A stretch of 64,000 bases of DNA from Candidatus Omnitrophota bacterium (lineage in GTDB: Bacteria > Omnitrophota > Omnitrophia > Omnitrophales > Aquincolibacteriaceae): assembly GCA_035368605.1 (NCBI GenBank), contig DAOSLF010000003.1, positions 889-64,888 of the forward strand, given 5' to 3'. The notes below the pieces were generated by a model. The model saw only the letters and a list, made by a program, of their open reading frames with translations, was not told the DNA's origin and did no database searches. Of this stretch, positions 31,203-46,961 are shown piece after piece (the stretch's first letter is position 1; the number at the start of each line of letters is the position of its first letter). The translations under genes were made by a program, and so were the position numbers.

Positions 31203-31245
31203 ATGGGGTCAGTCACCATTTCCCTGAAATGGTGACTGACCCCAT
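31203..31245. repeat. element B copy 1: 43-nt perfect hairpin (19-bp stem, loop CCCTG); terminator-like, 8 nt past the decarboxylase stop
   Basis: atggggtcagtcaccattt-ccctg-aaatggtgactgaccccat, followed by a U-rich tract on both strands. Near-identical to 46915-46957. Confidence 0.8.
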
Positions 31246-31252
31246 TATTTAT

Positions 31253-32434
31253 TTATACGAGAATGACCTTGGCAGGTTCGAAGCCGTTGAAATTGGGGAC
31301 AGCGCTCGCGCAGGAGTAGGCGCCGATATTCTTGACGTAAACAACATCCCCGACGAACAACTCGGGGAACTCTTCGTTCGATGTGAGGATATCAAGCGAA
31401 TCGCAGGTCGGGCCCGCGATCACGCTCATGGTCTTCTGCCCGCGTCGCAAGGTCTTGAACTCGTACTTGCAGTGATCGAACATCATCCCTGAAAAATCCT
31501 GGTAGATGCCATCATTGATGTAGTAGAAGTTCTTGTTGTCGCGGAAGGCCTTCCCCACCACCTGCGTCACGAGCACGCCGGAGGGACCCGCGAAAAACCG
31601 CCCCGGCTCGGCGATAAAATGAGTGGATTTCGGAAAGAGCTCCTTCATCTGCTTGCGGATCTGCGCGGCCATCCGCTCAAAGTTGATGCCGATCTCGTTT
31701 TCAAAGTGAGGTATCGGGAACCCGCCTCCGATATCGACGATCGAAAGCGGCATGCCGTTCTCTTTGGCCTCCCTGAAAATCCCGGCCGTGAGCTCGAGCG
31801 CCTGCAAATAATTTTCGACGTTCGTCGACTGCGAACCGACGTGAAAGCTCACGCCTTTCGGCACGAGCCCGAGGCTTTTCGCCTTCCGCAAGAGACAAAA
31901 CCCCTGGTCCGGTTCCGCGCCGAACTTAAGCGACAGCTGGACGACCGAGCCGCGGTTCTCGACGCGGATCCTCAAGATCACGTGCGCTCCGGGGAAACTC
32001 TCCGCGATCTTGTAAAGCTCGGCTTCGTTGTCGAAGGTCATGAGCCGGACGCGGCGCTTGCGGGCGGTGACGATATCCTCTTTCGACTTGATCGTATTCG
32101 CGAAGATGATGTGGCTCGGTTTCGCGCCCTGCTTGAGGACGAGTTTCATCTCGGCCGCGCTCGCGACGTCGAAGCAGGCCCCGAGCTTCGCGAAATATTT
32201 GACGATCCGCGGATGCGGATTGGCCTTGATCGCGTAATAAGGCGTCACTTCCGGCAGGGCCTTTCGAAAGCGGTTGAACTGCTTCTCGAGGACACTCTTG
32301 CGGATCAAGAGAAAGGGCGTCTTATGCTTTTTCAGCATTTGCCGGATCAGATTCTCGATACCCGAGGACTCCGTCGGCCTGACCGCCTTGTTTAAAAACG
32401 AAATGCTCCCACTCTCAAGAAGGGGCTGTTTCAT
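31253..32434 (-). CDS. PLP-dependent fold-III decarboxylase (ornithine/lysine decarboxylase-like)
   Basis: 393 aa. YAIKANP (PLP-lysine region), FHVGSQ, GGGFP, EPGRF and GPTCDSLD motifs are characteristic of eukaryotic-type ODC/DapDC-family enzymes. The GPTCD active-site Cys is ODC-like. The ATG lies 6 nt after the hss stop. Confidence 0.8.
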   Translation of the reverse strand: MKQPLLESGSISFLNKAVRPTESSGIENLIRQMLKKHKTPFLLIRKSVLEKQFNRFRKALPEVTPYYAIKANPHPRIVKYFAKLGACFDVASAAEMKLVLKQGAKPSHIIFANTIKSKEDIVTARKRRVRLMTFDNEAELYKIAESFPGAHVILRIRVENRGSVVQLSLKFGAEPDQGFCLLRKAKSLGLVPKGVSFHVGSQSTNVENYLQALELTAGIFREAKENGMPLSIVDIGGGFPIPHFENEIGINFERMAAQIRKQMKELFPKSTHFIAEPGRFFAGPSGVLVTQVVGKAFRDNKNFYYINDGIYQDFSGMMFDHCKYEFKTLRRGQKTMSVIAGPTCDSLDILTSNEEFPELFVGDVVYVKNIGAYSCASAVPNFNGFEPAKVILV

Positions 32435-32440
32435 TCCGGA

Positions 32441-33943
32441 TCAACCCCTGTCGTCCACGAGGAAGGAGTTGAACTGCCAAAGCTCGTCCTTTTTCGGCGC
32501 CTTGGCCCCGAACCTCAGGTACTTCGTGTTGAGATTCTGAAGCGGCGTCCAGTCCGAGGGGATCGAAACGAACGGGACGATGTAAGGGGTCGCGAACTTC
32601 AGGATGAACTCGTGATCGATATCATCCGGGAGCAGAAAACCCTTGCGCGGATTGTCGATCATCCAGAGCGCCGCGGCGACCACGGAGACCGCCACCTGGA
32701 GAGTCGTCGCCTGCTGGTGCGCGACCAGTTTGCGCGTCGTGTGGATGTCGAGAAGCGAACCGCACCACCAGGACGTGAAATCATGTCCCATCAGGAGCAC
32801 ACCGAGCTCGTCGCGACCGTCAATGATATCGTCCGAAAGGATGCGCTGGTCCTCGTGCAGCTTGTACTGGCGCATCCGGAGCTCCTGCATCGAAAGGACC
32901 GCGGAATCGCAGGGGCAGTACGCGTAATGCACGGTCGGGCGGTACACGGCCTTGCCGTTCTTCCATACCGTGAGACGGTCGGAGATCGAAAACGCCTCGC
33001 CGTGGCGGATCACCATGCCGTTGATCTCCCCACAGGGCACCCACGAACGAACAAACGTGTTCATGCCAAGCGTGCCGAGGCAAATCTGGTTCTTCGGCCC
33101 CGTCCTGTGCTCATAGCCGTCCCTGGGAAGTTTCTTCTCGTGAGTCCCCCAGCCGAGTTCGGCCGGCGCGACACCCTCCTCATAGAACCCTTCGATCGAC
33201 CAGGTGTTCACGAACTCGTTGACGCGTTTCGGAACGTCCGTGACCTGCGTGTCTCGTTCGCTGATATGGATAACCTTGACGCCTGTTGTCTGCGCGAGCT
33301 TCGCGAAGTTCTTCCCGGCAAGAAAGCGCTCGAGGTTCTTCGCGCGCGGATCCCGCGGCTTTTCCTTCAGAATCTTCTTCGCGATATCGATCAGGGCCTT
33401 CTTTGTGAAATGGGACACAAGGCCGGGATTCGCGCCGTGGTCGACGATCGAAGTCGCGCCCTTCTCGTCGCCCCACTTCTCCTTCATGAGCTTGCGAAGC
33501 TTCATGTGGCGATAGTAGAGCGTGTATTGGGTCGGGTCAGTTCGCTTGTCGTCACGGTAAGGGTCCCATTCCTCGATCGAGGTGTTGACATAGAGGATGT
33601 TGTTTGCGCGACACCAGTCGAGGATCTCCCATGCGTCGATATTCCAGGCGAGGTCGATGATCATATCGCCGCACCCGACGTATTTCGCAAGAAGCTTCCT
33701 GTAATTGTCCCTCGTGACGCGATCGAAGACGTAGCGGACGCCTTTCTTCAGCGCGTCTTTTACACGGTGGCGGTTGTCGACGAAGTCCATAATCGTGATG
33801 TTCTTCGCGGGCATGTCGAAGTGACGCAGGATCAGCGGTGTCGCACATTGCGACACACCCCCGCACCCGATAATCAAGACCTTTCCGTTGAACTTCACGC
33901 GGGTCTCGGGGATGCTGGCTTTGACCTTAGGGTATTTGAACAC
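32441..33943 (-). CDS. hss: homospermidine synthase
   Basis: 500 aa. N-terminal NAD-binding GKVLIIGCGGVSQ, then VFVNTWSIEGF, AELGWGTHE, VRSW, AVYRPTVHYAYCPCDSAVLS, DELGVLLMGH, TGLQV, DWTPL and ELWQFNSFLVDD. All match, from memory, conserved blocks of characterised bacterial homospermidine synthase. GTG start with GGAGGG SD. Confidence 0.8.
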   Translation of the reverse strand: MFKYPKVKASIPETRVKFNGKVLIIGCGGVSQCATPLILRHFDMPAKNITIMDFVDNRHRVKDALKKGVRYVFDRVTRDNYRKLLAKYVGCGDMIIDLAWNIDAWEILDWCRANNILYVNTSIEEWDPYRDDKRTDPTQYTLYYRHMKLRKLMKEKWGDEKGATSIVDHGANPGLVSHFTKKALIDIAKKILKEKPRDPRAKNLERFLAGKNFAKLAQTTGVKVIHISERDTQVTDVPKRVNEFVNTWSIEGFYEEGVAPAELGWGTHEKKLPRDGYEHRTGPKNQICLGTLGMNTFVRSWVPCGEINGMVIRHGEAFSISDRLTVWKNGKAVYRPTVHYAYCPCDSAVLSMQELRMRQYKLHEDQRILSDDIIDGRDELGVLLMGHDFTSWWCGSLLDIHTTRKLVAHQQATTLQVAVSVVAAALWMIDNPRKGFLLPDDIDHEFILKFATPYIVPFVSIPSDWTPLQNLNTKYLRFGAKAPKKDELWQFNSFLVDDRG

Positions 33944-34018
33944 GATCGCTCACCCTCCATTGTTTGAAATTTGACAATAACCGTCACAAAAAACTTTTTC
34001 CCGTGAATCGGAAACCGG

Positions 34019-34047
34019 ATATTACATCATATCGTTTTCTGCATCAA
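34019..34047 (-). promoter_or_regulatory. putative sigma70 promoter of hss-decarboxylase operon (TTGATG-17-TAATAT)
   Basis: The minus strand reads TTGATGcagaaaacgatatgatgTAATAT about 75 nt upstream of the hss GTG. Confidence 0.45.
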
Positions 34048-34191
34048 CCACTAAACCCCGAAAAAACATATTTTTTTAAAAATTCCCCGCCGAAGGCCGA
34101 GAGCCAGGCCTTCAGCCCCAAGCCGCCATTGCGCCTTGACGGAAGCGGGCTTTACGTGGAGAATCTTCCCGCTGTCCAAAAAGGAGCCTTT

Positions 34192-34527
34192 ATGAAAAAA
34201 ATTCTTTGCGCGTTCCTCGCCCTTTCTGTTCTGACATCCGCGACGCCGGTCTTCGCGAATTTCGACAATTTTCAGAAGAGCCCCTGGACCGAAGAGAAGA
34301 CCTATGTCGATAAATCGGTCGGCAAGCTCGCCTTCGGTCTCACGAACATCACAGCCGGCTGGACGGCCCTCTTCTTCGAAACCGCGAAACACGGCAACAT
34401 CTTCGCGGGCATCGCAAAGGGTGTCTGGCGCACCGGGACCAACACCGTGGGCGGCGTTCTCCATGCGGCTACCTTCCCCGTCGCGGTGGATATCCCCCTT
34501 CCTGACGGAGGCGTGAAATTCGAATGA
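34192..34527 (+). CDS. small secreted protein, paralog A (111 aa), K-L-A-F-G-L-x-N-x-x-x-G-W motif family
   Basis: ATG with AAAGGAG SD. Signal peptide MKKILCAFLALSVLTSATPVFA. Shares GKLAFGLTNITAGWTALFFE with the downstream paralog. The stop overlaps the next start (ATGA). Confidence 0.65.
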   Translation: MKKILCAFLALSVLTSATPVFANFDNFQKSPWTEEKTYVDKSVGKLAFGLTNITAGWTALFFETAKHGNIFAGIAKGVWRTGTNTVGGVLHAATFPVAVDIPLPDGGVKFE

Positions 34528-35135
34528 AACGCTTCCTCGCGCTCGCCCTTCTATTGATGATCGCTCTCGCTCCCTCCGCGGTCGCAACGCCATGGGCCGA
34601 AAAGGAAGGTTACGGCGAAAAGACCAAAGGGAAGCTTGCGTTCGGTCTCCGCAACACGTTCCTCGGCTGGACCGAAATGTTCTCGGAGCCGAAGCGCTAC
34701 AAGTTCGACCTCAAGAAGAGCGAATGGGAAGGGTTCTGCATGGGAATCTCGAAGTTCGTCTTTTACACGGCGGACGGTCTGATCCAGCTCGCGACCTTTC
34801 CCATTCCCGTCGACTTCCCCGACTTCGGGGAGGGAGCGGTCCCGGACCTCGGAAAGAAAAAGGAAGGGCCGCCGAAACCGTGGGAGGTTCACGGAAAATC
34901 AAGGTACAGCGTAATTCCCGCCTCGGAAGTCCCGGCCACGATCCGCGTCACCAAAGCGAAGTCACCCGCTCCCGTTCCGCCGCCGATCCAGACTCCCCCG
35001 ACCACTCCAACCTACGAGGTTGGAATGGTTCCCACGACTTCTCTAGCGGAAACCGCGGCCCAGGATACTTCCGGGGTTCCCGAACCGCCGACTCTTGTCG
35101 CGACGCCGGTCCCCGACCTGCCCTACTCGAAATAA
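34524..35135 (+). CDS. small secreted protein, paralog B (203 aa) with Pro/Thr-rich C-terminal tail
   Basis: Signal peptide MKRFLALALLLMIALAPSAVA. GKLAFGLRNTFLGWTEMFSE is paralogous to gene A. Low-complexity PT-rich tail. Element A copy 2 lies inside the tail-coding region. Confidence 0.6.
   Translation: MKRFLALALLLMIALAPSAVATPWAEKEGYGEKTKGKLAFGLRNTFLGWTEMFSEPKRYKFDLKKSEWEGFCMGISKFVFYTADGLIQLATFPIPVDFPDFGEGAVPDLGKKKEGPPKPWEVHGKSRYSVIPASEVPATIRVTKAKSPAPVPPPIQTPPTTPTYEVGMVPTTSLAETAAQDTSGVPEPPTLVATPVPDLPYSK
34999..35022. repeat. element A copy 2 (identical 24-mer with 8-3-8 palindrome), inside coding sequence of paralog B
   Basis: accactccaacctacgaggttgga, identical to 28878-28901. Translated in-frame as PTTPTYEVG. 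Confidence 0.8.
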
Positions 35136-35412
35136 AAACCGCACCCGGGGTTACCCGTTGCGGCGTTTGACTCACGAATCCTGTTCAGCTTCGGACCTGA
35201 TACTCGCGGGCGGAATTCCCTTCGCATTCCACAAAGGCATGCTTCAAGCATTCTCGATCACAACCTGGCAACAACCCTCCGATCCCCGATCCTCCGCCCG
35301 CGCGTGAACATACCCCGAGAAGACCAGGTCAGGGATCAGCACAGGCAGGAAAAAGCTCTGCGGGGACCGTTTGCACCGCATCACACCGATGCGATGTTCG
35401 CTCTTTTCCCTA

Positions 35413-36237
35413 TTACTCCGCCGCCAGAAATCCGTGGACGATGTTGACGAACACCTCGCGCTCTTCCATATGGATCGAGTGGGCCACGGCGGGGATGCAC
35501 CGGTAAACGCTGCCAGGGATCATCTTCGAAAGCGCCTCCGCTTCTTCCGGAAGGATCAGCACGTCCTCCCCGCCCTCGAGAACAAGCGTCCGGGCCTTGA
35601 TCCCTCCGAGACGCCCGCGTGCGTCGAACGAAGCGACCGCGTCAATCTGCCCCTTGAATCCGGGAAGCTGCTGCCGGTAACGATCGCGGATGCCCCGTTT
35701 CACGAGCGCCGCAACGAAACTTTCCCGGGAAAGAACGCTCGGCGAAAAAAGCCAGCGGGTCCATTCGCGGAGCCACGCCTCGAGATCCCCCCCCTGCGCA
35801 AGGTCCCTGTAAAATTTCAGGAAAAGCTCGTTGTTCCTCCCGGAAGAAACGGCCGCGGTGCTCGACAGGACGAGCCGGTCGACGCGCTCCGGATACCGGA
35901 TCGCAAGCTCCTGGGCAATAAAACCTCCGAGGGAATGACCCAGAACATGCGCCCGCCCGACCTTGAAATGATCGAGCACCCGCAGGACGTCCTCCGCCAT
36001 TTCGATGACGCTGTACGGCTTTCCCGGAATCGAACTGCGCCCCGCGCCCCGGTTGTCGAGCGTCAGGATGCGGTACTGCTTCGGAAGTCTCGCGATCACC
36101 CCGTTCCAGTTCGAGCTGTCGGTCCCAAGCCCCGCGATCAAAAGAAGCGGCGCCCCCTCCCCGCGCGACTCGCAGTAGATCGCGACCTCGCCCGGAAGTT
36201 TCTCCCCCTTATGCGTTCGTCGTTCGTGAGTGGTCAT
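35413..36237 (-). CDS. alpha/beta-fold hydrolase
   Basis: GHSLGG nucleophile elbow (GxSxG), ...LLLIAGLG... and a C-terminal His region. Start chosen at the ATG (MTTHERR). The ORF-track start at 36291 is TTG. Confidence 0.7.
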   Translation of the reverse strand: MTTHERRTHKGEKLPGEVAIYCESRGEGAPLLLIAGLGTDSSNWNGVIARLPKQYRILTLDNRGAGRSSIPGKPYSVIEMAEDVLRVLDHFKVGRAHVLGHSLGGFIAQELAIRYPERVDRLVLSSTAAVSSGRNNELFLKFYRDLAQGGDLEAWLREWTRWLFSPSVLSRESFVAALVKRGIRDRYRQQLPGFKGQIDAVASFDARGRLGGIKARTLVLEGGEDVLILPEEAEALSKMIPGSVYRCIPAVAHSIHMEEREVFVNIVHGFLAAE

Positions 36238-36446
36238 GGGTTTCACAGTCTGTCTTTTAGACTCTAGTCCCGCTAATTCCCGGTCGATCAAGTTCGTTTT
36301 TCAACAAAAACAATCCTGTTTTTGGAAAAATCCCGGATCAATGGCTAACAACCAGTTTCTGCCGGAAAACCACAAAGAATATCTACTATGGTTTCAACAA
36401 AAAAGGCCGTGCCGAAACGCCGGCACGGCCCCGATTTTCAAAAACC

Positions 36447-37727
36447 CTAAACACATTCACCCCGAACCAGGTCCTGGTAGGTCTCGCGTTTGCGGACGAT
36501 CCTGAAGGAGCTTCCCTTCACCATCACCTCGCAGGCGCGACCGCGGGAATTGTAGTTGGAACTCATCGTAAAACCGTAGGCACCCGCGGTCATAATCGTG
36601 AGGCATTCGCCGGGCCGCATTTCGGGAAGCTCCCGATCCTTCGCAAAAAAGTCCCCGCTTTCGCAGATGGGACCAACCACATCGTACACCCAGCGCCGGG
36701 CATCCGGGCGTTTCTGGACGGGCCAGATCGCGTGGTAGGCGTTGTAGAACGCGGGACGGATCAGGTCGTTCATACCCGCGTCCGTAATAAAAAATTTTTT
36801 CACGTTCGTTTCCTTCACATAGAGGATCTTCGCGGCGAGCACACCCGCGTTCCCCACGATGAAACGCCCGGGTTCGAAGATGACCTGGAACTTGCGTTTC
36901 CTGAGCAGGGGGAGGATCTTCGACGCGAACTCGTCTGCCGTCTGCGGGTCCTCGTCGCTATAGATGATGCCAAGGCCGCCGCCGAGGTTGAGGAACCTTA
37001 TCTTCATGCCCGCCGCCTCGATCTCATCGATAAATTCCAGTATCTTGCGGAATGCCTCGACAAAGGGCTCCCCCGTTTCGATCTGGGAACCGATATGGAC
37101 ATGAACACCCGTGAGCCGGGCGTGCGCGAGCGTCTTGCTCGCGAGGTAGATCGCACGCGCGCGTTCAAAGTCGATGCCGAACTTGGTCTCGGCCTTGCCG
37201 GTCGTGATGTAGTCGTGCGTGTGCGGGTCGACGTTCGGGTTGATGCGCAGCGACACATTCACTTTCTTTCGCATCTTCTTCGCGAGCGCGTTGATGCGCT
37301 CGAGCTCGGGCACGGACTCGACGTTGAAAAGGAGGATGCGAGCCCTGATCGCCTCGCGAATCTCCTCGTCCTTTTTTCCGACGCCGGCGTAGACGATCTT
37401 CCGGCCCTGGCATTTCACCTTCCTCGCGCGGAAGAGCTCGCCGCCTGAGACAATGTCGAGGCCGGAGCCCTTCGCGACGAGCGCCCTCAGGACCGCAAGG
37501 TTCGAATTGGCCTTCACGGAATAACAGATCAGGGGCCGCACGGAGCGGAACGCGCGCTGGAGCTTCGCGAGGTGGTCGGTGAGCGTCTTCGAGCTGTAGA
37601 TATACGCGGGCGTGCCGGTCTTCTCCAGGATCTTCCTGAGCGGGACATTCTCGCAGCAGAGCTCGCCCTTCCGGTTATAGCAGAAATCGTGCATCCGGGA
37701 TTCTTCTTCGAAATCGATTCGTGACAT
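36447..37727 (-). CDS. lysA: diaminopimelate decarboxylase
   Basis: YSVKANSN, HIGSQ, GGGLG, EPGR and GPICESGD motifs of fold-III DapDC. ATG with GAGGT SD. Last gene of the arg operon. Confidence 0.9.
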   Translation of the reverse strand: MSRIDFEEESRMHDFCYNRKGELCCENVPLRKILEKTGTPAYIYSSKTLTDHLAKLQRAFRSVRPLICYSVKANSNLAVLRALVAKGSGLDIVSGGELFRARKVKCQGRKIVYAGVGKKDEEIREAIRARILLFNVESVPELERINALAKKMRKKVNVSLRINPNVDPHTHDYITTGKAETKFGIDFERARAIYLASKTLAHARLTGVHVHIGSQIETGEPFVEAFRKILEFIDEIEAAGMKIRFLNLGGGLGIIYSDEDPQTADEFASKILPLLRKRKFQVIFEPGRFIVGNAGVLAAKILYVKETNVKKFFITDAGMNDLIRPAFYNAYHAIWPVQKRPDARRWVYDVVGPICESGDFFAKDRELPEMRPGECLTIMTAGAYGFTMSSNYNSRGRACEVMVKGSSFRIVRKRETYQDLVRGECV

Positions 37728-37833
37728 AATCGTTACCTCGATTTTCCAGGATAGTTAACTCCCCTCTTTCCTGGGAGGGGCCGGGGGAGATTTCAGATTC
37801 CCCTGGATTCCCCCTTGGCCGAAGGGGGAACGT

Positions 37834-39213
37834 TCAAGCAAGCAGTCTCGTCCAATAGTCCATCTGCTGACGGACCTTGAGGGGATGCGTGCTGCCGATG
37901 GTCTTCTTGCCACGGACCGAAGTCTCGGGGTCGAAGAGATCGTAAATATCCGCGCCGATCCCGGGGGAGAACCTCTTCCACTCCCTGAGCGAAAGTTCCC
38001 GCAGCCCCTTGCCCGACTCCGCGGCGAAGCGCACGGCCTGGCCGACGGTCGAGTGGGCCTCCGAGAACGGGACCTTCTTGCGGACGAGGTACTCAAGGAT
38101 GTCCGTGGCGAAGAGCGTGTCGTCCGCGACCGCTTTCGCCATCGCCTTTTTCTGCCAGGTTGCGGACGCGACCGTGAGTGCGAGCACTTCAAGGGCGATC
38201 GTCGTCTTGTGGACCGCATCGAATGCGCCGGGCTTATCCTCCTGGAGGTCCCGGTTATAAGAAAGCGGCAGTCCCTTCTGGACGGTCAGGATCGACTGCA
38301 GATGCCCGAAGATCACCCCGGCCCTGCCCCGCACGAGCTCAAAGACATCAGGGTTCTTCTTCTGCGGCATCAGGCTGGAGCCCGTCGCGAACGCGTCGTC
38401 GAGCTCGACATACCCGAATGCCTCCGAGTTCCAGAGGATGAAATCCTCGGCGAGCCTCGAAAGATGCATCCAGAGGATCGAAAGGTTCGCCAGAAATTCC
38501 GCAAGGAACCCCCGGTCGCTCACGGCGGTCATGCTGTTTCGGGCGATTTTTTCGAAGCCGAGCTCCTTCGCGAGGAATTTTTGATCGATCGGAAGCGCGG
38601 AACCCGCGAGCGCCGCGGAACCGATCGGGAGGATATTGACGCGCTTCAAGGTGTCGGCAAGTCGGGCCTTGTCCTCCTCGAGCATCTCGACATAGGCGAG
38701 GAGGTGATGCGCGAGCAGCACCGGCTGGGCCTTCCTCAGATGCGTCATGCCGGGGACAATGGCCCCCTGGGCTTTTTCCGCCGCGGCGACGAGCGCCTTC
38801 TGGAGACGCGAGGTTTCATACCGTATCACCGCGATCTTTTCCCGGAGGCAGACCCGGGTGGACGTGACGACGAGGTCGTTCCGGCTGCGGCCCGTGTGGA
38901 GTTTCTTCGCGACCGCGCCTGAGCGCTTTTCGAGTTCGCTTTGGATCAGGGTGTGAATGTCTTCGACCTCCGCGACATAGCGGGCGATGTCTTTTCCCTC
39001 GAGGTCCTTCTCGATCCGCGCGAGGCCTTTCAGGATCGCCTTCGATTCGGCCTGTGTGATGATCGCGGTCCGCGCGAGCATCTTCGCCCACGCCGCGTTT
39101 ACGGCGAGTTCCGCGTCAAAGAGCTCTTTGTCGACGGCGAGCGAATAGCTGAAGCATCTCAACGCCGGATGCATTTCCTTCTTGAACCGACCGCCCCAGA
39201 GTTTTTTGGACAT
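37834..39213 (-). CDS. argH: argininosuccinate lyase
   Basis: MSKKLWGGRF... and full-length fumarase/ASL-family similarity. Confidence 0.95.
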   Translation of the reverse strand: MSKKLWGGRFKKEMHPALRCFSYSLAVDKELFDAELAVNAAWAKMLARTAIITQAESKAILKGLARIEKDLEGKDIARYVAEVEDIHTLIQSELEKRSGAVAKKLHTGRSRNDLVVTSTRVCLREKIAVIRYETSRLQKALVAAAEKAQGAIVPGMTHLRKAQPVLLAHHLLAYVEMLEEDKARLADTLKRVNILPIGSAALAGSALPIDQKFLAKELGFEKIARNSMTAVSDRGFLAEFLANLSILWMHLSRLAEDFILWNSEAFGYVELDDAFATGSSLMPQKKNPDVFELVRGRAGVIFGHLQSILTVQKGLPLSYNRDLQEDKPGAFDAVHKTTIALEVLALTVASATWQKKAMAKAVADDTLFATDILEYLVRKKVPFSEAHSTVGQAVRFAAESGKGLRELSLREWKRFSPGIGADIYDLFDPETSVRGKKTIGSTHPLKVRQQMDYWTRLLA

Positions 39214-39287: not shown

Positions 39288-40472
39288 TTAGCTTTTATAC
39301 ATTCCCTCGTACGGAAGGCCCCAGAGTTTCATGAACCCCGTCGCGGCCGTCCGGTCGAAGAGATCGCCCTTTGAATACGTCGCGAGTTTTTCCCGGTAGA
39401 GCGCAAACTTTGATTCGCGGCCCACGCAGATCGCGTGGCCCCGGTCGAGCTTGATCCTCACTTTTCCCGTGACACGCGCCTGGTTGGAGGCAAAGAAGGC
39501 GTCGAGGGCTTTTCTCAGGGGCGAGAACCAGAGCCCGAAATAGACAAGCTCGGCATATTTTTCGCTGAGCACGCGCTTGTAATGGATGAACTCGCGGTCC
39601 ATGACGAAGCCCTCGAGCTCGTCGTGGGCCTTCAGGAGCACATCCGCGGCCGGGGCCTCGTAGACCTCGCGGCTCTTGATCCCGACCAGGCGATTCTCGA
39701 TCATGTCAAAACGCCCGACGCCGTAGGCGCCCGCGACTGCATTGAGCCTGTCGATCAGCGTCACGAGCGGCATCTTCTTTCCGTCAAGGCTGACCGGCAC
39801 GCCCTTCACGAAACCGATCTCGATGTAGCGCGGCTTCTTCGGCGTCTTGTCACAGGCCTTTGTCATCACGTACGCGTCTTCCGGCGGCTCGAGCATGGGG
39901 TCTTCCAAAATCCCGGCCTCGATCGCGATCCCCCAGATGTTCTTGTCGATCGAGTAGATGCTTTTTTTCGTCACATCGATCGGGATACATTTCTCCCGCG
40001 CGTATTCGATCTCTTCTTCGCGGGTCTTAAACTCCCACTCGCGGAGCGGGGCAATGATCTTGAGATCCGGATTGAGCGCCCTCACCCCCACTTCAAGGCG
40101 GACCTGATCGTTGCCCTTGCCCGTGCAACCGTGCGCCACGGCCTCGGCGCCCTCGCGTTCAGCGACCTCGACCAGGTGCTTCGCGATCATGGGACGCCCG
40201 AGCGCGGTCGCGAGCGGATATTTCCCCTCGTAACGCGCGTGGGCCCAGATCGCGGGAAGGATGTAGTCCTTCGCGAACTCGTCCTTGAGATCGACGATGA
40301 AGGTCTTGAGCGCGCCGGCGGCTTTCGCGCGCTTGATCAGCTTGGTCTTGTCCTTGACTTCCCCGATGAACGCGGAAAAACAGATGACCTCGTAGCCGTA
40401 ATGTTCCTGCAGCCATTTCACGGCGCAGGAAGTGTCAAGTCCGCCTGAATATGCCAGCACTATTTTTTTCAT
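39288..40472 (-). CDS. argG: argininosuccinate synthase
   Basis: MKKIVLAYSGGLDTS... (PP-loop) and full-length ArgG similarity. Confidence 0.95.
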   Translation of the reverse strand: MKKIVLAYSGGLDTSCAVKWLQEHYGYEVICFSAFIGEVKDKTKLIKRAKAAGALKTFIVDLKDEFAKDYILPAIWAHARYEGKYPLATALGRPMIAKHLVEVAEREGAEAVAHGCTGKGNDQVRLEVGVRALNPDLKIIAPLREWEFKTREEEIEYAREKCIPIDVTKKSIYSIDKNIWGIAIEAGILEDPMLEPPEDAYVMTKACDKTPKKPRYIEIGFVKGVPVSLDGKKMPLVTLIDRLNAVAGAYGVGRFDMIENRLVGIKSREVYEAPAADVLLKAHDELEGFVMDREFIHYKRVLSEKYAELVYFGLWFSPLRKALDAFFASNQARVTGKVRIKLDRGHAICVGRESKFALYREKLATYSKGDLFDRTAATGFMKLWGLPYEGMYKS

Positions 40473-40541
40473 TGTTTCATCCTTTTCAATGACTGAAGGC
40501 CGGAAATGTTCCGGTTTTTCAAAAATCGATCGTCCCCAGCC

Positions 40542-41471
40542 TTATTGGATCGCTCCTTCGTTAAAGAGATGAAGCAAAACGGCCTTCTGGATGTGAAGCC
40601 GGTTCTCGGTTTCGTCGAATACGATGCAGTTCTTGCTTTCCATGACACTGTCGGTGATCTCCTCGCCGCGGTGCGCCGGCAGGCAGTGCATGATGAGCAC
40701 GTTTTTCCTGGCCTTCGCGACGAGCTCCCTATTGACCTGCATGCCCTGAAAGTCCTTCAGCTTCTTCTTCCGCATCGCCTCTTCGCCCATACTGACCCAG
40801 ACATCGGTGTAAATCGCATCCGCTCCGGCCACGGCCCTGGCGGGGTCAAAGAACCCTTCGATCACGGCCCCCGTCTTTTTCGCGATTTCCCGCGCGGTCC
40901 TCACGATCTTGGCGTCGGGCTGGTATTTCTTCGGCGTCGCGTAACGGATCTTCGCGCCCAGTTTCGCCGCGACAAGGATCAGCGAGTGCAGGACATTGTT
41001 GCCATCCCCTACGAACGCGAGGACGGGGTCTTTTTCGGCGGGGATCTTCTCATACAGCGTCATGTAATCCGCAAGCGCCTGGCAGGGATGCTCCTTGTCG
41101 CTCAAGCCGTTGATGACGGGTTTGTCGAAGTAGTCCCGGAACTCGGTAATTGTCCAGTGCGAAAAGGTTCGCATGACGACCCCCGCGAGGTACCGGTTGA
41201 GGACGCGCGCGACATCCCGCACCTCTTCCCGCACGCCGAGCTGGATGTCCTCGGGTCCGAGGTAGATCACACCGCCTCCCATCGCAAAGATGCCCGCCTG
41301 GAACGAAACCCAGGTCCTGGTCGACGGTTTCTCGAAAATGAAACCGAACATGCGTCCCTCGAGAACGTTCCGGAAATCCTGCGGCCGGGCCTTGAGATCC
41401 GCCGCAAGTGCGAACAACTTTTTGATCTCGTCCGTGCTGAGGTCGTTGATCGAGATCAATGAGTCGAACAT
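40542..41471 (-). CDS. argF: ornithine carbamoyltransferase
   Basis: STRTWVSFQ carbamoyl-phosphate motif and HCLP ornithine-binding motif. Confidence 0.9.
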   Translation of the reverse strand: MFDSLISINDLSTDEIKKLFALAADLKARPQDFRNVLEGRMFGFIFEKPSTRTWVSFQAGIFAMGGGVIYLGPEDIQLGVREEVRDVARVLNRYLAGVVMRTFSHWTITEFRDYFDKPVINGLSDKEHPCQALADYMTLYEKIPAEKDPVLAFVGDGNNVLHSLILVAAKLGAKIRYATPKKYQPDAKIVRTAREIAKKTGAVIEGFFDPARAVAGADAIYTDVWVSMGEEAMRKKKLKDFQGMQVNRELVAKARKNVLIMHCLPAHRGEEITDSVMESKNCIVFDETENRLHIQKAVLLHLFNEGAIQ

Positions 41472-42679
41472 GAGCAGTCTTCCTGTTTTTTCGACAGCTT
41501 CGCGAATACCTGGTCAAGGATCGCGACGGCCCTGCGGACCTCTTTCGCGGTCACGTTGAGCGCCGGCAGGAACCGTAGCACGTCGCCCTGGGTCGAATTG
41601 ACCAGAAGCCCCCGGTCGCGCGCCTCCTGGGCGTAGGGCGCGGACGGTGCGCTGAGCTTGAGGGCGCACATAAGGGCCATGCCGCGATATTCCTCGATCA
41701 CGGGATACTTTTCCCGGAGCTTCTCGAACTCGATCTTGAGGAGTTCCCCCATCCGGACCGTATTCGTGAGCAGTTTTTCCTTGCGAATCGCCTTAAAAAC
41801 GGCCAGGGACGCCGCGCACACGAGCGGGCTCCCGCCGAAGGTCGAGCCGTGCATGCCGGCCGTCAGAACCTCTTTTCTGATCCGTTTGTTCACGACAAAC
41901 GCACCGATCGGAACACCGCCGCCCAAAGCCTTCGAAAGCGTCATAATATCCGGTTCGACGCCGTGGTAATGCTGGTAGGCGAACATCTTGCCCGTCCGCC
42001 CCATACCGGTCTGCACTTCATCCAGGATGAGAAGCATATCCCGCTCGTCGCAAAGCTGGCGCAGGCCCTGCATGAATTCCGGCTTCGCGACGTGGATTCC
42101 GCCCTCCCCCTGGATCGGCTCGAGCATGATCGCCACAGTCTTCGGCGTGAGAAGTTTTTTCACGGACTCAAGATCGTTGAACTCGGCGTAGTGGAACTTC
42201 TCGATCAGCGGCTCGAAACCCTGATGAAACTTGTCCTGGCCGGTCGCGGTCATCGCTGCGATCGTCCTTCCGTGGAAGGACCGCTTCATCGTGATGATCT
42301 CGTAGCGACCGGTCTCGCCACCGTACTTTTTGGCGAACTTGATGGCACCCTCGTTCGCCTCGGCGCCGGAATTGCCGAAGAATACGCGTCCCGGGAAGGA
42401 GGCTTTCACAATCTCGCTGGCGAGCTCCGACTGCTTGATGTTGAGGAAGTTGTTCGGGATGTGGAGCATCGTCCGGGACTGGTGTTTGATCGCGTTGATC
42501 ACGGCCGGATGGCAGTGCCCCAGGCACGACACGCCCCAGCCCGGGAAGAAATCAAGATACTCCTTGCCTTCCAGGTCCCAGACCCGCGATCCTTTCCCCT
42601 TCACGAGACAGACCGGCAGCCGCGTGTAAGTGGGCATCACGTATTCGTTATAAAGTTTCTGGACGTCTGTGGTTTTCAT
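41456..42679 (-). CDS. argD: acetylornithine aminotransferase
   Basis: Class-III aminotransferase (GNSGAEANE..., PLP-lysine region). Overlaps the argF start by 16 nt. Confidence 0.9.
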   Translation of the reverse strand: MKTTDVQKLYNEYVMPTYTRLPVCLVKGKGSRVWDLEGKEYLDFFPGWGVSCLGHCHPAVINAIKHQSRTMLHIPNNFLNIKQSELASEIVKASFPGRVFFGNSGAEANEGAIKFAKKYGGETGRYEIITMKRSFHGRTIAAMTATGQDKFHQGFEPLIEKFHYAEFNDLESVKKLLTPKTVAIMLEPIQGEGGIHVAKPEFMQGLRQLCDERDMLLILDEVQTGMGRTGKMFAYQHYHGVEPDIMTLSKALGGGVPIGAFVVNKRIRKEVLTAGMHGSTFGGSPLVCAASLAVFKAIRKEKLLTNTVRMGELLKIEFEKLREKYPVIEEYRGMALMCALKLSAPSAPYAQEARDRGLLVNSTQGDVLRFLPALNVTAKEVRRAVAILDQVFAKLSKKQEDCSCSTH

Positions 42680-42748
42680 AGCCCTGTGTTCAGTTCTCAG
42701 CCCTCGGCATTCAGCCTTTACTGATAGCTGATCGCTGATGGCTGATCC

Positions 42749-43603
42749 CTATAGAGTTATTTCCGTTCCGATTCCCTGATCGGTAAAAATCTCGAGTAGC
42801 AACGCGTGCGGGATGCGCCCGTCGATGATGTGCGCTTTGGGGACACCGCCCTCAAGCGCGTCGATGCAGGCCTTCACCTTCGGGATCATGCCTCCCGAGA
42901 TGATCTGCTGGTCGATCAGCCTCTGCGTGTCGCCCACGCACAGTGACGGGATCAGGGTGCTTTCATCCTTGAAATCGCGCAGGATGCCCCTCACGTTCGT
43001 AAGCACCATGAACTTCTGGACTTGCATGGCGGCCGCGATGTTGGCCGCCGCCTCGTCCGCGTTCACGTTGTATATTTCGCCGTCCGGCCCCTTACCGACC
43101 GGAAAGATCACGGGAATCTTTCCGAACCCCGTCAGTTCCTTGATCGGGACCGTGTTGACCGAGGACACGTCGCCGACGAAACCGATGTCCCCGTGTTCCG
43201 TGTTCTTCACGACACTCAGGACCTTTGCGTCGTAACCGGAAAGACCGACCGCCGAACCGCCGAGCCGTTCGATGTCGTGAACGATGCCGCGGTTGAGCTC
43301 GGCCAGCGTTTCGTTGACAACCGAAATCGCGGGTTTGTCCGTCACGCGCAGTCCGTTGATAAACTGGCTCTGGATGCCCTTTTTCTTCATGTTCTCGGTG
43401 ATGTACTTGCCGCCGCCGTGAATCAGGACCGGACGGATACCGACGTAGCTCATGAACACGAGATCCTGGAGCACCATGTCCCGCACTTCCTGGTACGTGA
43501 GCGCGGCACCGCCATACTTGATGAGAACTTCCTTGCCGCGGAATTTCTGAATGTACGGAAGCGCTTCGATGAGGACGCCGGCCTTTTTGATCAGTTCCTG
43601 CAT
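42749..43603 (-). CDS. argB: acetylglutamate kinase
   Basis: ...LIKYGGAAL... amino-acid-kinase fold with full-length similarity. No SD upstream (A-rich leader). Confidence 0.9.
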   Translation of the reverse strand: MQELIKKAGVLIEALPYIQKFRGKEVLIKYGGAALTYQEVRDMVLQDLVFMSYVGIRPVLIHGGGKYITENMKKKGIQSQFINGLRVTDKPAISVVNETLAELNRGIVHDIERLGGSAVGLSGYDAKVLSVVKNTEHGDIGFVGDVSSVNTVPIKELTGFGKIPVIFPVGKGPDGEIYNVNADEAAANIAAAMQVQKFMVLTNVRGILRDFKDESTLIPSLCVGDTQRLIDQQIISGGMIPKVKACIDALEGGVPKAHIIDGRIPHALLLEIFTDQGIGTEITL

Positions 43604-43677
43604 TTTTTCGTGTGGAGCGCAGCGTGTTCGGCGTGGAGTTTTCCCCTACGCTCTACACTGCACGCTCTTCCCTTTCT

Positions 43678-44898
43678 CTAGGAATATGCCGCGTTAATGA
43701 GAACGTACTTCGTCGTGAGGTCGGACGTGATAAACTCCGCCCGGCCGCGGCCTTTGCCGATCTTGACATCGATCGTGTACTCTTTTTTCTGGAGGATCCG
43801 CCGCGCCTTCGGGATGTTGAGGACGCGAAGCTTCCCGAGGTGCACGACTTCGGCGTCACCGAACGAGATACTCAGGTGGTTCGGGTTGAAATCCACGCCG
43901 CTCGCGCCAACCGCGGCCGCGATGCGCCCCCAGTTCGGGTTCGAACCCGCGAGCATGGTCTTGAAAAGCATCGAGTTGGCGATCTGCCGCGCCGCGCGCT
44001 CGGCGTCCGTCGGGGTTTTCGCCCCCGAGAGACGCAGTTTGCAGACGTGCGTCACGCCCTCGCCGTCCTTCACCATTTCATAGGCGATGTACCGCATAAC
44101 CTCTTCGAGGGCCTCACGGAACATCCAGTAGTCGCGGTCGACCTTCGCGATCGTTGGGTTGCCGGCCAGGCCGTTCGCGAGGCAAAGCACCATGTCGTTG
44201 GTGCTCATATCGTTGTCGATCGCCATGCTGTTGAACGTGTCGTCCGCCGCGTGGCGCACCGCACGCCGCAGCATCGGTTTCGTGATCGCGCAATCGGTCG
44301 TGATGAAACAAAGCATCGTCGCCATATTCGGGTGCACCATACCCGCGCCCTTCGCGCAGGCCGCGATCGTCACTTTCTTCCCGCCGAGCTCGATCGAAAG
44401 CGCGATCTCCTTGTTGGAAAGGTCCGTTGTCAGAATCCCTTTCGCCGCGCCGTGACCGCCCGTGTCGGAGAGCTTCGCGACCAGTTTCGGGATCGCCCGT
44501 TTGACGCGCGTGACCGGGAACGGCACGCCGATAATTCCCGTCTGGGCGATGAGGACCTCGTTCGGGAGCACCTCGAGGGCCTTCGCGGTCTCCCATGTGA
44601 TTTCGTCAACCGCCTTCTTGCCGATCGCCCCATTCAGGCAATTTGCGTTCCCGCTCGTCCCGAGAATGGCGTGGTGCCTCGCATTGTTGATAACCTTCAT
44701 GGAATACAGCACGGGCCACGCCTTCGCGCGGTTGGTTGTGAACGTTCCCGCCGCGACACACGGAATCTTCGAGAAGATCAGCGACATGTCATATTTTTTT
44801 TTCTTCTTTTTGATGCCCGCGTGAATGCCGCCCGCCACGAAACCGCGCGGGGAAGTCACCGAACCGTTTTTTTCTCTCTTCCAAAAAGGTTTTTTCAT
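43678..44898 (-). CDS. argJ: bifunctional glutamate N-acetyltransferase/amino-acid acetyltransferase
   Basis: ArgJ family: the autocatalytic ATML/TxxxC region (NMATMLCFITTDC) is present. Contains a KKKKKK run encoded by an (A/T)8 homopolymer. Confidence 0.9.
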   Translation of the reverse strand: MKKPFWKREKNGSVTSPRGFVAGGIHAGIKKKKKKYDMSLIFSKIPCVAAGTFTTNRAKAWPVLYSMKVINNARHHAILGTSGNANCLNGAIGKKAVDEITWETAKALEVLPNEVLIAQTGIIGVPFPVTRVKRAIPKLVAKLSDTGGHGAAKGILTTDLSNKEIALSIELGGKKVTIAACAKGAGMVHPNMATMLCFITTDCAITKPMLRRAVRHAADDTFNSMAIDNDMSTNDMVLCLANGLAGNPTIAKVDRDYWMFREALEEVMRYIAYEMVKDGEGVTHVCKLRLSGAKTPTDAERAARQIANSMLFKTMLAGSNPNWGRIAAAVGASGVDFNPNHLSISFGDAEVVHLGKLRVLNIPKARRILQKKEYTIDVKIGKGRGRAEFITSDLTTKYVLINAAYS

Positions 44899-44976
44899 CG
44901 AGAACTGCTCTCCCTTAGATTGACTTGCATAGCGGTTTTCGCACTTCGTTCACAGCGATCATATCGTGAAGCGGTT

Positions 44977-46002
44977 TCAGATGAGCCCCGCACCCTCGGG
45001 GAAACCGAACCGGATGTTCATGTTCTGGACCGCCTGACCGGAGGCGCCCTTTAAAAGATTGTCGATGGCCGTAATGATGACAAGCCGCCCCGTGCGGGCG
45101 TCGAGCGAAACGCCGATGTCGCAGAAATTCGTGTTCCGGACGTCCTTCAGGCTCGGGAACTGTCCCGCAGGCTTGACCCGCACGAACGGGTCCTTGCCAT
45201 ACGCGGTCACGAGCGCCCGCCGCACTTCATCCTCCGTCACCGTCTTTTTGGCGGGCTCGACATAGATCGTCGCGAGAATACCGCGGTACACGGGAAGAAG
45301 ATGCGGGATGAACGTGATCGCAACCTCGCGGCCGGCCGCCAACGAAAGATTCTGCTCGATCTCGGGAATATGCTGGTGTTTATTGACCTTGTACGCGTTG
45401 TAGTTCCCGTCCACTTCGCAGAACTGTGTCGAGGTGACAAGCTTCTTCCCCGCGCCGCTCACGCCGGACGCGGCATTGATGATGACGGGATCATGCTTGA
45501 TAAGCTTCTTCTCCAAGAGCGGAATGAGCGCGAGCGAAGGGCCTGTCGGATAACACCCGGGATTGGAAATAAGCTCGGCCTTCCTGATCTTCTTCCGGTT
45601 CACTTCGCAAAGTCCGTAAACGGCCTGCCGGAGCCGCGCCGGGAACGCATGGTCGATTCCGTACCACTTCGGATAAAGCGTCGCGTCTTTCAGCCGGAAA
45701 TCCGCGGAGAGATCAATCACAACCTTTCCCGCCTGCAGAAACAGGTCCCCGGTCGTCATCGCCTCCGTGTGGGGCAGGCAGAGAAAAACCATGTCGGCCT
45801 TCTTCCTGAGATCTTCAAAATCATACGGGGTGATCTGGAGTTGCACGCCCCTGGGAACGGACGGAAGGACCTCAGAAAGCGGGATCGGCTTTTCCTGCCG
45901 AGTGGTGAGATGAGTGATCCGAACATCCGGATGGGAAAGCAACAACCTCGTGAGTTCAGCGCCTGTGTAACCCGTAGCGCCCAAGACAGCGCAGTTCAAC
46001 AT
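44977..46002 (-). CDS. argC: N-acetyl-gamma-glutamyl-phosphate reductase
   Basis: MLNCAVLGATGYTGAELTRLL... N-terminal NAD(P)-binding segment, with the catalytic Cys region (NPGCYPT). Confidence 0.9.
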   Translation of the reverse strand: MLNCAVLGATGYTGAELTRLLLSHPDVRITHLTTRQEKPIPLSEVLPSVPRGVQLQITPYDFEDLRKKADMVFLCLPHTEAMTTGDLFLQAGKVVIDLSADFRLKDATLYPKWYGIDHAFPARLRQAVYGLCEVNRKKIRKAELISNPGCYPTGPSLALIPLLEKKLIKHDPVIINAASGVSGAGKKLVTSTQFCEVDGNYNAYKVNKHQHIPEIEQNLSLAAGREVAITFIPHLLPVYRGILATIYVEPAKKTVTEDEVRRALVTAYGKDPFVRVKPAGQFPSLKDVRNTNFCDIGVSLDARTGRLVIITAIDNLLKGASGQAVQNMNIRFGFPEGAGLI

Positions 46003-46058
46003 CTGACGTCGGTTTCTCCTTTGCGGGAATAAAGGGACAGCCTCCTTGAGAACGCGTT

Positions 46059-46087
46059 ATTATAGGAATAGCTCTATCCTTTGTCAA
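46059..46087 (-). promoter_or_regulatory. consensus sigma70 promoter of the arg operon (TTGACA-17-TATAAT)
   Basis: The minus strand reads TTGACAaaggatagagctattccTATAAT, about 55 nt upstream of the argC ATG. Both hexamers are perfect consensus. Confidence 0.6.
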
Positions 46088-46175
46088 TTTAAGAAGTTAC
46101 GTCAAAAACCGGGGATGGACCGCGGCTCAAAACACTCATAACTCCATACCACGAATCAGGTTACGTGTATTTTGA

Positions 46176-46204
46176 TTGACATTCAGAGGTTAAATCTCTA
46201 TCTT
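46176..46204 (+). promoter_or_regulatory. putative sigma70 promoter of rnc (TTGACA-17-TATCTT) abutting the first ATGs
   Basis: TTGACAttcagaggttaaatctcTATCTT, directly followed by ATG (46205) and ATG (46214). The predicted TSS falls at about 46211-46214. Confidence 0.4.
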
Positions 46205-46213
46205 ATGAAATCC

Positions 46214-46915
46214 ATGAAAAAGACACCTCAGATCACCAAGTCCCTTCTCAAGAAGTCATTCGGCCTGACGGTCAAAAAAGTCCCTCTTTACGAAGCCGCG
46301 CTGACACACCCTTCCTTCCGGCATGAAAACCAGATCAAGGCCAAACTCGAGGATTTCGACCGTCTGGAATTTCTCGGGGACTCGATCCTGAACGAAGTGA
46401 TCTGCCAGAGGATCTACGCGGATTTTCCGGACGCCGACGAGGGCATGCTTTCGAAGCTCCGGTCGATACTCGTTTCGCAGAAGATCCTCAGCCGCATCGC
46501 AGCAAAATTCAAGCTTCACAATCTGATCCGGCTCGGGAACAGCCTGGGCCAGGCCATGAAAACGCCGTATAAATTCAAACTGATGACAGACTCGATGGAA
46601 TCGATCTTTGCGGCGGTCTTTTTCGATCTCGGCCGGAAAAAAACGGAGGCATTCATCCTGAAACATTACGCGGAATATATCGACGCCAAACGGCTATTCC
46701 GCCTTGATCCCAACCCGAAGAGCACGCTCCAGGAACTGACGCTCAAGAAATGGCAGAAACTTCCCCAATACACCCACAAGTTCGGTCCGAAAGGCGTGAC
46801 TACGACAGTGTCCATAGACCGCCGGCGCAAGGCTTCGGGATTTCACAAGATCAAGAAGGAATCGGAGCTGAAGGCGGCACGGGCCCTTCTGAAACTTCTC
46901 CGGCAGGAACAATAA
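46214..46915 (+). CDS. rnc: ribonuclease III
   Basis: RNase III signature ERLEFLGDSILN, the catalytic domain and a C-terminal dsRBD. Start ambiguous. The ORF track starts at TTG 46172, and ATGs sit at 46205 and 46214. 46214 (MKKTPQITKSLLKK...) is chosen because the predicted promoter lies inside the longer frame and there is no SD. The resulting N-terminal length matches typical RNase III. Confidence 0.8.
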   Translation: MKKTPQITKSLLKKSFGLTVKKVPLYEAALTHPSFRHENQIKAKLEDFDRLEFLGDSILNEVICQRIYADFPDADEGMLSKLRSILVSQKILSRIAAKFKLHNLIRLGNSLGQAMKTPYKFKLMTDSMESIFAAVFFDLGRKKTEAFILKHYAEYIDAKRLFRLDPNPKSTLQELTLKKWQKLPQYTHKFGPKGVTTTVSIDRRRKASGFHKIKKESELKAARALLKLLRQEQ

Positions 46916-46957
46916 TGGGGTCAGTCACCGTTTCCCTAAAACGGTGACTGACCCCAT
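46915..46957. repeat. element B copy 2: 43-nt hairpin (19-bp stem, loop CCCTA) between convergent rnc and asmA-like stops; bidirectional terminator-like
   Basis: atggggtcagtcaccgttt-cccta-aaacggtgactgaccccat. It differs from copy 1 by a compensatory A:T to G:C change in the stem and one loop substitution. It overlaps the rnc stop codon by 1 nt and ends 4 nt before the asmA-like stop. Confidence 0.8.
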
Positions 46958-46961
46958 TATT

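Follow-up and report, generated by a model that had tools for sequence, protein, structure and literature searches.

Why does a stretch of DNA from Candidatus Omnitrophota bacterium carry nearly the same long, perfect hairpin twice, each time hard against a stop codon? The stretch (GenBank assembly GCA_035368605.1, contig DAOSLF010000003.1, positions 889 to 64,888 of the forward strand) is 64,000 nucleotides long and is called the window below. An original prediction, made from the sequence of the window, took the two hairpins as intrinsic, partly bidirectional terminators and also as members of a dispersed family like the repetitive extragenic palindromes (REPs). We consider it about 65% probable that they are copies of a mobile palindromic repeat of the Omnitrophota, an undescribed family of a known kind, which sit in the window as passengers and are not purpose-built terminators. 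The two copies are as follows (bit scores are from covariance model R1, described below).

31202..31246, + strand: copy 1, a 45-nt palindrome, AATGGGGTCAGTCACCATTT-CCCTG-AAATGGTGACTGACCCCATT, arms 31202-31221 and 31227-31246, loop 31222-31226; 77.7 bits.
46914..46958, + strand: copy 2, a 45-nt palindrome, AATGGGGTCAGTCACCGTTT-CCCTA-AAACGGTGACTGACCCCATT; 80.5 bits.

As predicted at 31203-31245 and 46915-46957, the hairpins are perfect and far beyond chance. In their 43-nt form they read ATGGGGTCAGTCACCATTT-CCCTG-AAATGGTGACTGACCCCAT (copy 1) and ATGGGGTCAGTCACCGTTT-CCCTA-AAACGGTGACTGACCCCAT (copy 2), and the palindrome of copy 2 extends to 46911-46961, with 23-nt arms around the loop 46934-46938. 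The copies had been said to share 41 of 43 nt, loop included, but they match at 40 of 43 and differ at three positions, a stem A/G (31218/46930), a loop G/A (31226/46938) and a stem T/C (31230/46942). The loops are therefore not shared, being CCCTG with G at 31226 and CCCTA with A at 46938. The stem change between the copies, A:T in copy 1 (31218/31230) and G:C in copy 2 (46930/46942) at pair 16/28, is real. With one base more on the left and four on the right, the direct match of 31202-31249 to 46914-46961 is 45 of 48. When the 19-nt arm was searched with up to three mismatches, only these four arms were found in the window, against a chance expectation of 0.02, and none of 100 shuffles reached four. 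The RNA of either strand was folded into perfect hairpins of 21-23 bp at -38 to -45 kcal/mol (z about -8 to -9), and the single-stranded DNA of the two copies folds at -25 and -27 kcal/mol (z -11 and -13). The sequence of copy 1 is unchanged in six independent assemblies of the window species. Its CCCTG loop, read on the + strand, is antisense to the flanking genes, and the CCCTA loop of copy 2 lies on the sense strand of rnc.

Across the whole window no Rfam family was found at its gathering score, and the E-value mode gave only generic long-hairpin (miRNA precursor) matches far under threshold. A literature search with the arm sequence returned unrelated primer matches only, and nothing was found on repeats of Omnitrophota. 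The arm sequence does not occur in the part of the text of PMC3733652 that the search covered.

The two hairpins belong to a family. A genome collection with one genome per species was scanned for pairs of the 11-nt core arms separated by 3-25 nt of any sequence, and 26 loci were obtained. Eleven of these (12 copies on 11 contigs) belong to the draft genome Omnitrophica bacterium RIFOXYB12_FULL_50_7, called RIFOXYB12 below, and two to other Omnitrophota metagenome-assembled genomes (MAGs). In the Omnitrophota matches the cores are always exactly 13 nt apart, and the inner stem and loop do not vary (ATTTCCCTAAAAT or its complement). RIFOXYB12 carries the 45-nt palindrome 12 times, together with one compensated variant, and eight of its copies are intergenic and located 0-9 nt from a stop codon. 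This position matches the published behaviour of REPs and supports a REP-like reading; the convergent type, conv-REPs, lie less than 20 bp from both open reading frames (ORFs), and REP ends supply stop codons (PMC3733652). In metagenomes, three further distinct copies were found and one more at the orthologous locus L039 (fetched loci carry L numbers). The pattern scan of metagenomes gave 5 loci and missed the JGI contigs Ga0116243_10000152 and Ga0377229_000498, both of which have copy 1, so that a non-match in that scan is not absence. No match to the element was found in viral contigs.

Covariance model R1 was built from 20 distinct copies. Elements of sister subfamilies, whose arms are GGGGACAGGCACC or GGGGGCAGGC, were detected with it in these same loci, and seven of them lie in 77 kb of RIFOXYB12 sequence fetched for other reasons. 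The arms of both window copies and of all T-type copies start GGGGTCAG, which fits the motif GGGGWSAS discussed below; those of a sister subfamily start GGGGACAG, and the L039 variant GGGGGCAG departs from the motif at W. The outer pair is A:T in RIFOXYB12 (AAAGGGG...CCCCTTT) and T:A in both window copies (AATGGGG...CCCCATT), and each genome therefore has its own version of the element. Outside convergent contexts the CCCTA loop is in sense orientation to the gene beside or around the element in 12 of 14-15 copies, including five of the six intragenic ones, in a sample (L010-L036 and the window) that is mostly one genome; window copy 1 is an exception. The genes flanking L014 and L023, both of 345 aa, were considered as orthologues, and this was rejected by BLASTP.

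If the arm were a word recognised in some DNA-binding function, be it DNA uptake, the nucleoid or gyrase, such a genome-specific outer pair could be taken as its dialect, and the hairpins would be incidental, as in the paired uptake sequences of Neisseria. The arm is also conserved between genomes whose proteins are 48-65% identical. However, no solitary arm with up to three mismatches occurs in the window, and beyond the hairpins the 13-nt arm with up to two mismatches has a single 2-mismatch match, at 50737, probably by chance. Uptake sequences are far denser than the 2 per 64 kb seen here, and for GGGGWSAS the window has 8 sites on one strand and 7 on the other, no enrichment where about 10 are expected. 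We give this explanation practically no credence.

Six copies of the element lie in frame within genes, each as an insertion of 15 codons. Four of these, in RIFOXYB12, are located inside long ORFs in the sole frame that the element leaves open, where they encode KGVSHHFPKMVTDPF, and in all four a Pfam domain spans the insert: an NAD(P)HX dehydratase (Carb_kinase), a family 9 glycosyltransferase (GT9), a short-chain dehydrogenase (SDR) and a radical-SAM/CofH protein. When the dehydratase was aligned to its solved Thermotoga homologue (PDB 2ax3), a 9-residue gap fell inside the insert. The compensated arm variant GGGGTCAGGCACC...GGTGCCTGACCCC is inserted in ThiL, and in another genome the element lies in the opposite orientation within a periplasmic binding protein. 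In-frame intragenic REPs have already been described, notably in Opitutus terrae and Rickettsia (PMC3733652). That one frame is open in both orientations was considered as evidence of design and rejected, because a 45-nt palindrome has the same arm codons in either orientation, and by expectation about half of such elements would have an open 15-codon frame. An ORF through the L023 element was judged spurious, having no Pfam hit and flanking genes that end at the element. A protein search with a 90-aa concatenate of the encoded peptide gave no candidate in-frame insertion.

A transposase gene is bracketed by two copies of the element. At L027 (RIFOXYB12 contig MHFU01000136), elements at 4926-4968 and 5549-5591, 623 nt apart, enclose an ORF that starts MARVKRSFVKDGIYHILNRGNGRQKVF...YCVMPNHFHFVV and matches Pfam Y1_Tnp at 47.5 bits (cut-off 23). 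The best NCBIfam model for this 94-aa fragment is the REP-associated tyrosine transposase (RAYT; REP_Tyr_transpos), at 44 bits and thus below its 80-bit cut-off. In L042, an ENA assembly made independently, the upstream element is again present at 19-20 nt from the ATG, and the protein can be followed further, through GHVWQGRFKSF. At L027 5540-5575 the frame in which the Y1 ORF enters the downstream element is closed (...KIKRGQSPFP*), and the TAA of the loop serves as its stop codon. The protein carries the motifs NHFH and WQ, and its tail, which is at least 67 aa long, has no Pfam hit. A homologue search with the Y1 fragment returned its own cluster only, and a weak tblastn match beside a Solirubrobacterales hairpin (E = 0.09) was inspected and dismissed.

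These features recall a known group of proteins. The signatures of TnpA-Y1 subclass 2.1 are HuH NH[YF]H, W[EQ], a Y motif Y..LNP and a C-terminal HTH-like tail (PMC6006769). Quentin et al. 2018 equated this subclass, which is group 1 of Bertels, with the TIRYTs of Di Nocera et al. 2013, and scored it as without REP-like structures (PMC6006769). The terminal inverted repeats (TIRs) that flank TIRYT genes share GGGGWSAS, or GGGG[AT][CG]A[CG]; TIR families are moderately abundant, often as dimers, and the flanking repeat may overlap the 3' end of the transposase gene (PMC3733652; PMC6006769). From the fit of both protein and arms to these motifs, the 45-nt hairpin is read as an inverted dimer of a TIRYT-type TIR.

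Like the TIRs of TIRtrons and TIRYTs (PMC3733652; PMC6006769), the present element has the GGGGWSAS arm motif and a Y1 protein with NHFH, WQ and a long C-terminal tail. The arrangement that marks a TIRtron, a Y1 gene between inverted repeats, was found in the relative L027, where L042 confirms its 5' side, and not in the window. Unlike in TIRtrons, the arms here form a tight, perfect inverted dimer (45 nt with a 5-nt loop) that behaves as one hairpin, complete dimers stand on both sides of the gene, and there are in-frame inserts in genes. The host phylum, Omnitrophota, is listed in neither PMC3733652 nor PMC6006769.

Two inverted repeats with almost nothing between them could also be a classical miniature inverted-repeat transposable element, that is, a DDE insertion sequence of which deletion has left only the two TIRs, moved as double-stranded DNA by cut-and-paste with target-site duplication. 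Copy 2 is flanked by TA...TA, a possible TA duplication hidden in the palindrome. Across the 20 copies, however, no consistent flanking duplication was found and the flanking columns pair in 48% of cells, the sole transposase gene seen beside copies is Y1/HUH and not DDE, no parent insertion sequence was seen, and the arms fit the motif of Y1-associated TIRs. We give this origin hardly any credence.

The presence of the element was also compared at orthologous sites. The genes next to the two window copies are the following.

31253..32434, - strand: lysine/ornithine decarboxylase gene, 393 aa (PF02784, PF00278; source names).
46172..46915, + strand: RNase III gene, rnc (homologues named ribonuclease III, Candidatus Omnitrophota).
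46962..49445, - strand: convergent AsmA-like gene, 827 aa (PF05170 AsmA on orthologues).

Copy 1 lies 7 nt from the stop codon of the decarboxylase gene (31253-31255), not 8 nt as had been stated, in a spacer of about 190-240 nt ahead of a small ORF and dapF. For copy 2 the description holds: the last base of the TAA of rnc (46913-46915) is the first base of the 43-nt hairpin, and 4 nt separate its end from the TAG of the AsmA-like gene (46962-46964). The decarboxylase sequence was found in MAGs named Candidatus Omnitrophica bacterium ADurb.Bin314 and Candidatus Omnitrophota, and all rnc homologues are from Omnitrophota.

The order of rnc followed by convergent asmA is kept in all ten Omnitrophota lineages fetched. 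The element is present at the junction in three of them, a possible remnant in one, and it is absent from six, including the two closest to the window. The lineages are listed with the identity of their rnc to that of the window.

Window, rnc 100%: element present.
L039, rnc 68%: element present; one arm pair changed on both sides, compensated from T:A to G:C (GGGGGCAG...CTGCCCCC).
L011, rnc 65%: element present in the same orientation; within the 45 nt only two stem pairs differ from copy 2, both on both sides.
L047, rnc 65%: possible internally deleted remnant.
L038, rnc 79%: without element.
L045, rnc 75%: without element.
L040, rnc 67%: without element.
L046, rnc 66%: without element.
L041, rnc 64%: without element.
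L048, rnc 64%: without element.

The rnc/asmA spacer of L047 (1327-1366) reads AAAGGGGGAttcagcCTGTCCCCTT and may be an internally deleted element of the GGGGACAG type at the same junction as copy 2. Spacers at the six element-free junctions measure -4 to 26 nt; those of L040, L041, L046 and L048 (-4 to 13 nt) are too small for any terminator hairpin, and in L046 the convergent stop codons overlap as TTAA. This pattern of presence and absence requires several gains or losses. Copy 1 is absent 3' of a decarboxylase gene of at least 90% identity in ADurb.Bin277, where the entire spacer is unalignable. With several Omnitrophota genomes, a bracketed Y1 gene, six in-frame inserts in genes and presence or absence at orthologous sites, the dispersed REP-like family of the original prediction is supported, and by more than the window alone could show.

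The same junction bears on whether the hairpins act in RNA processing or regulation. A helix of 20 bp or more could be an RNase III substrate, and with 21-23 bp the stems are long enough for this. The copy that ends rnc would then be a feedback site of RNase III on its own mRNA. The element stands at the rnc stop in three lineages, with the possible remnant in a fourth, and different arm subfamilies are involved. The six empty junctions, two of them in the closest lineages, speak against such a site, and most copies lie beside unrelated genes or inside ORFs. We consider it very unlikely.

Dedicated bidirectional intrinsic terminators, kept by selection on RNA structure and either copied or converged since they terminate well, would explain other features. 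Both copies lie at gene 3' ends, one of them between convergent genes, the RNA hairpins are very stable on both strands, and an A-run and a T-run flank many RIFOXYB12 copies (CCCCTTTTTT). A simple terminator scan flagged copy 1 on the + strand only, where no gene reads in, and copy 2 on the - strand only, which is the asmA side. The tails on the decarboxylase and rnc sides (UUUCUCAA and UUAUUCUA) failed the scan, even with a loose U-tract test. The U-rich tracts that had been reported after both hairpins are thus present on the asmA side of copy 2 and on the unread + strand of copy 1 and missing on the decarboxylase and rnc sides; as partly bidirectional terminators the hairpins have a U-rich tail at one of three gene-facing sides and are poor at the other two.

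Two other hairpins of the window carry clear U-tracts.

62126..62176, - strand: probable diverged relative from a sister subfamily (GRGGRCAGGC arms), GAAGAGGGCAGGCCGG-TTTCCCCTGGATG-TCGGCCTGTCCTCTT followed by U7; 31.6 bits, E about 1.6e-8.
15919..15969, - strand: weak, possibly related hairpin with a GGGGACAG arm; 14.2 bits, E about 0.035.

The hairpin at 62126-62176 has a 16-bp stem and a loop region, TTTCCCCTG, like the family loop, and is located between two tandem minus-strand genes. It looks like a canonical terminator and may descend from the sister "GGGGACAGGC" subfamily. That at 15919-15969 has the stem GGGGACAGG...CCTGTCCC followed by U-rich TTTTTCTTTT, 12 nt after the stop of ORF 15982-17649 (- strand). 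It may be a decayed relative of the family or merely a terminator, and its membership is uncertain.

Like intrinsic terminators, the element is a stem-loop containing G+C directly after a stop codon, and on either strand its flanks are U-rich in part. Unlike them, it has a stem of two to three times the usual length, an A as the first base after the G:C block, and a loop and stem sequence kept across genomes, and it also occurs inside ORFs and around a transposase gene. Termination needs neither perfect stems of 21-23 bp nor a conserved loop sequence. The terminator reading is weakened because these stems are atypically long and because the six copies within ORFs must be transcribed through. 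Neither does the bracketed transposase gene fit it, and with six of the ten rnc/asmA junctions empty a terminator is not required there. Ordinary terminators with G+C stems and long T-runs are also present in the window, and the organism therefore does use the canonical kind. A dedicated terminator role for the window hairpins is weakly supported, and we consider this explanation unlikely.

The change of A:T to G:C between the window copies had been taken as compensatory and as a sign of selection on the structure. Maintenance of the hairpin is clear, with pairing in 96.8% of the cells of the 20-bp helix across the 20 distinct copies and with 15 invariant pairs. Pair 16/28 (columns 20/32), however, is the most variable of the family, with A:U in 9 copies, G:C in 1, G:U in 1 and no pairing in 9, the last including both elements that flank the transposase gene. 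More cleanly compensated double changes are seen at columns 11/41 (L039), 15/37 (L027a) and 6/46 (window versus RIFOXYB12). In a shuffle control for covariation over the 20 copies, 40 of 500 shuffles reached the observed score, which is not significant, and the sample is biased in that most copies were ascertained with a pattern demanding a paired core. The case for selection from pair 16/28 is weak. Maintenance at the DNA level, for recognition by a transposase, explains this upkeep as well as selection on RNA does.

Among known repeats, the element is also like the REPs and REPINs (REP doublets forming hairpins) of Proteobacteria with their RAYTs. It is a short dispersed palindrome, mostly just 3' of genes near stops, with a single Y1 gene bracketed by copies, and intragenic in-frame copies are known there too (Opitutus terrae). 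The canonical foot tag of REPs was not found, as GTAG, GTGG or CGTC occurs neither in nor next to the element in any of the 20 aligned copies. Compared with E. coli REPs, the stem is perfect, longer (20-23 bp) and without the typical bulge, and the known copies number tens and not hundreds. Like Rickettsia palindromic elements (RPEs), the element is a palindrome that can lie in frame in protein genes, where it adds a short peptide in tolerated loops (PMC3733652). Unlike RPEs, which were compared by description only, both window copies are intergenic, and the in-frame inserts are in relatives. RPE-1 is about 100-150 bp long. RPE-4 and RPE-6 are shorter and have the CGTC tag, and repeats of the CGTC kind are without an associated transposase (PMC3733652).

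Membership in the family, insertion into genes, turnover at orthologous sites and one association with a transposase gene are shown, and these observations suggest how the element could work. It would be a non-autonomous REP/REPIN-like repeat of the TIR type, made of two inverted arms of about 20 nt starting from GGGGTCAG and a 5-nt loop. On single-stranded DNA it would fold into a perfect hairpin of 20-23 bp, and we infer that this hairpin is the target of a RAYT/TIRYT-type HUH/Y1 tyrosine transposase, which would act in trans from a gene elsewhere in the genome and move the element by cutting and pasting. Copies would persist where the harm is small, namely in very short spacers after stop codons and in coding loops in the sole open frame, and both window copies would be passengers at gene 3' ends. 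Transcribed copies should form a very stable RNA hairpin, which may shield the 3' end, cause partial termination or get in the way of ribosomes near the stop codon; any such effect would be secondary. In a study by Liang, REPs within about 15 nt of a stop codon are said to lower expression through ribosome stalling, and by analogy an effect of this type would apply to the decarboxylase, rnc and AsmA-like genes. REPs are credited with termination and with an influence on translation (Espeli 2001 and Liang 2015, as cited in PMC5581495).

Several points weigh against this view of the hairpins as mobile copies. The link to a transposase comes from a single locus of one genome, which two assemblies show. 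The Y-motif segment, with the expected catalytic tyrosine, falls in a scaffold gap at L027 and past a chimeric join in L042. A tblastn search with the Y1 protein over the window and the fetched loci (L042 was fetched later) matched L027 only. No empty site is alignable at the nucleotide resolution that would define the ends of the element, its target and any target duplication. The near-identical elements at rnc junctions, despite flanking proteins of 48-65% identity, could alternatively reflect selection for a host function. The copy count for the organism of the window covers 64 kb only, with two clear and one or two diverged copies. Experimental work on the substrate or biochemistry of TIRYTs appears in neither PMC3733652 nor PMC6006769, and recombinant TIRYT-TIR assays were put forward by Di Nocera et al. 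as future work only (PMC3733652).

Hairpins with the same arm occur in other phyla. The identical 11-13-nt arm (GG)GGTCAGTCACC was found in L009, L020, L022 and L029 (Solirubrobacterales MAGs) and in L017 (a deltaproteobacterium), and the hairpins of L007, L008, L016, L021, L024, L026 and L028, also from other phyla, have the arm (GG)GGTCAGTCACC too. One Solirubrobacterales genome has the same 60-nt palindrome in three copies. The inner stems and loops of these hairpins differ, and no Y1 gene was seen adjoining them. They could belong to the same Y1-associated TIR class or be chance finds among many genomic hairpins.

Apart from the hairpins, two features of the window were observed. A perfect sigma-70 consensus (TTGACA, 17 nt, TATAAT; 12 of 12) lies at 46059-46087 (- strand), in the divergent spacer between ORF 44977-46002 (- strand) and rnc. 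At 51366-53189 there are three tandem repeat copies with a period of 888 nt, the first two 96% identical over 300 nt, which presumably reflect repeated domains of a large gene.

A wider reading is offered only tentatively, and we regard it as somewhat doubtful. The 45-nt hairpins would take the role of REPINs for a group of domesticated tyrosine transposases (Y1 subclass 2.1, RAYT group 1 or TIRYT) that is the largest and the least understood, and these enzymes would recognise a conserved GGGGTCAGTCACC-type arm. Such a system would persist across Omnitrophota genera and settle repeatedly at the same gene junctions, the rnc stop among them. Its copies would decay into what look like ordinary terminators and would give enzymes extra loops of 15 residues, and the hairpins of other phyla would be part of it. 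If this is true, hairpins with the 11-13-nt arm in Solirubrobacterales, Acidimicrobiia, Chloroflexia, Planctomycetes and the deltaproteobacterium are the same system.

As copies of a mobile repeat, the two odd hairpins of the window would be explained as part of a mobile repeat system that spans the genome, in a phylum for which metagenomes are almost the only source. In annotation this would mean that hairpins next to stop codons in Omnitrophota genomes are not terminators by default, and that 15-residue stretches of the form KGVSHHF..VTDPF in Omnitrophota proteins are repeat insertions and not conserved motifs. It would also offer a concrete hairpin partner for the tyrosine transposases of TIRYT or subclass 2.1.

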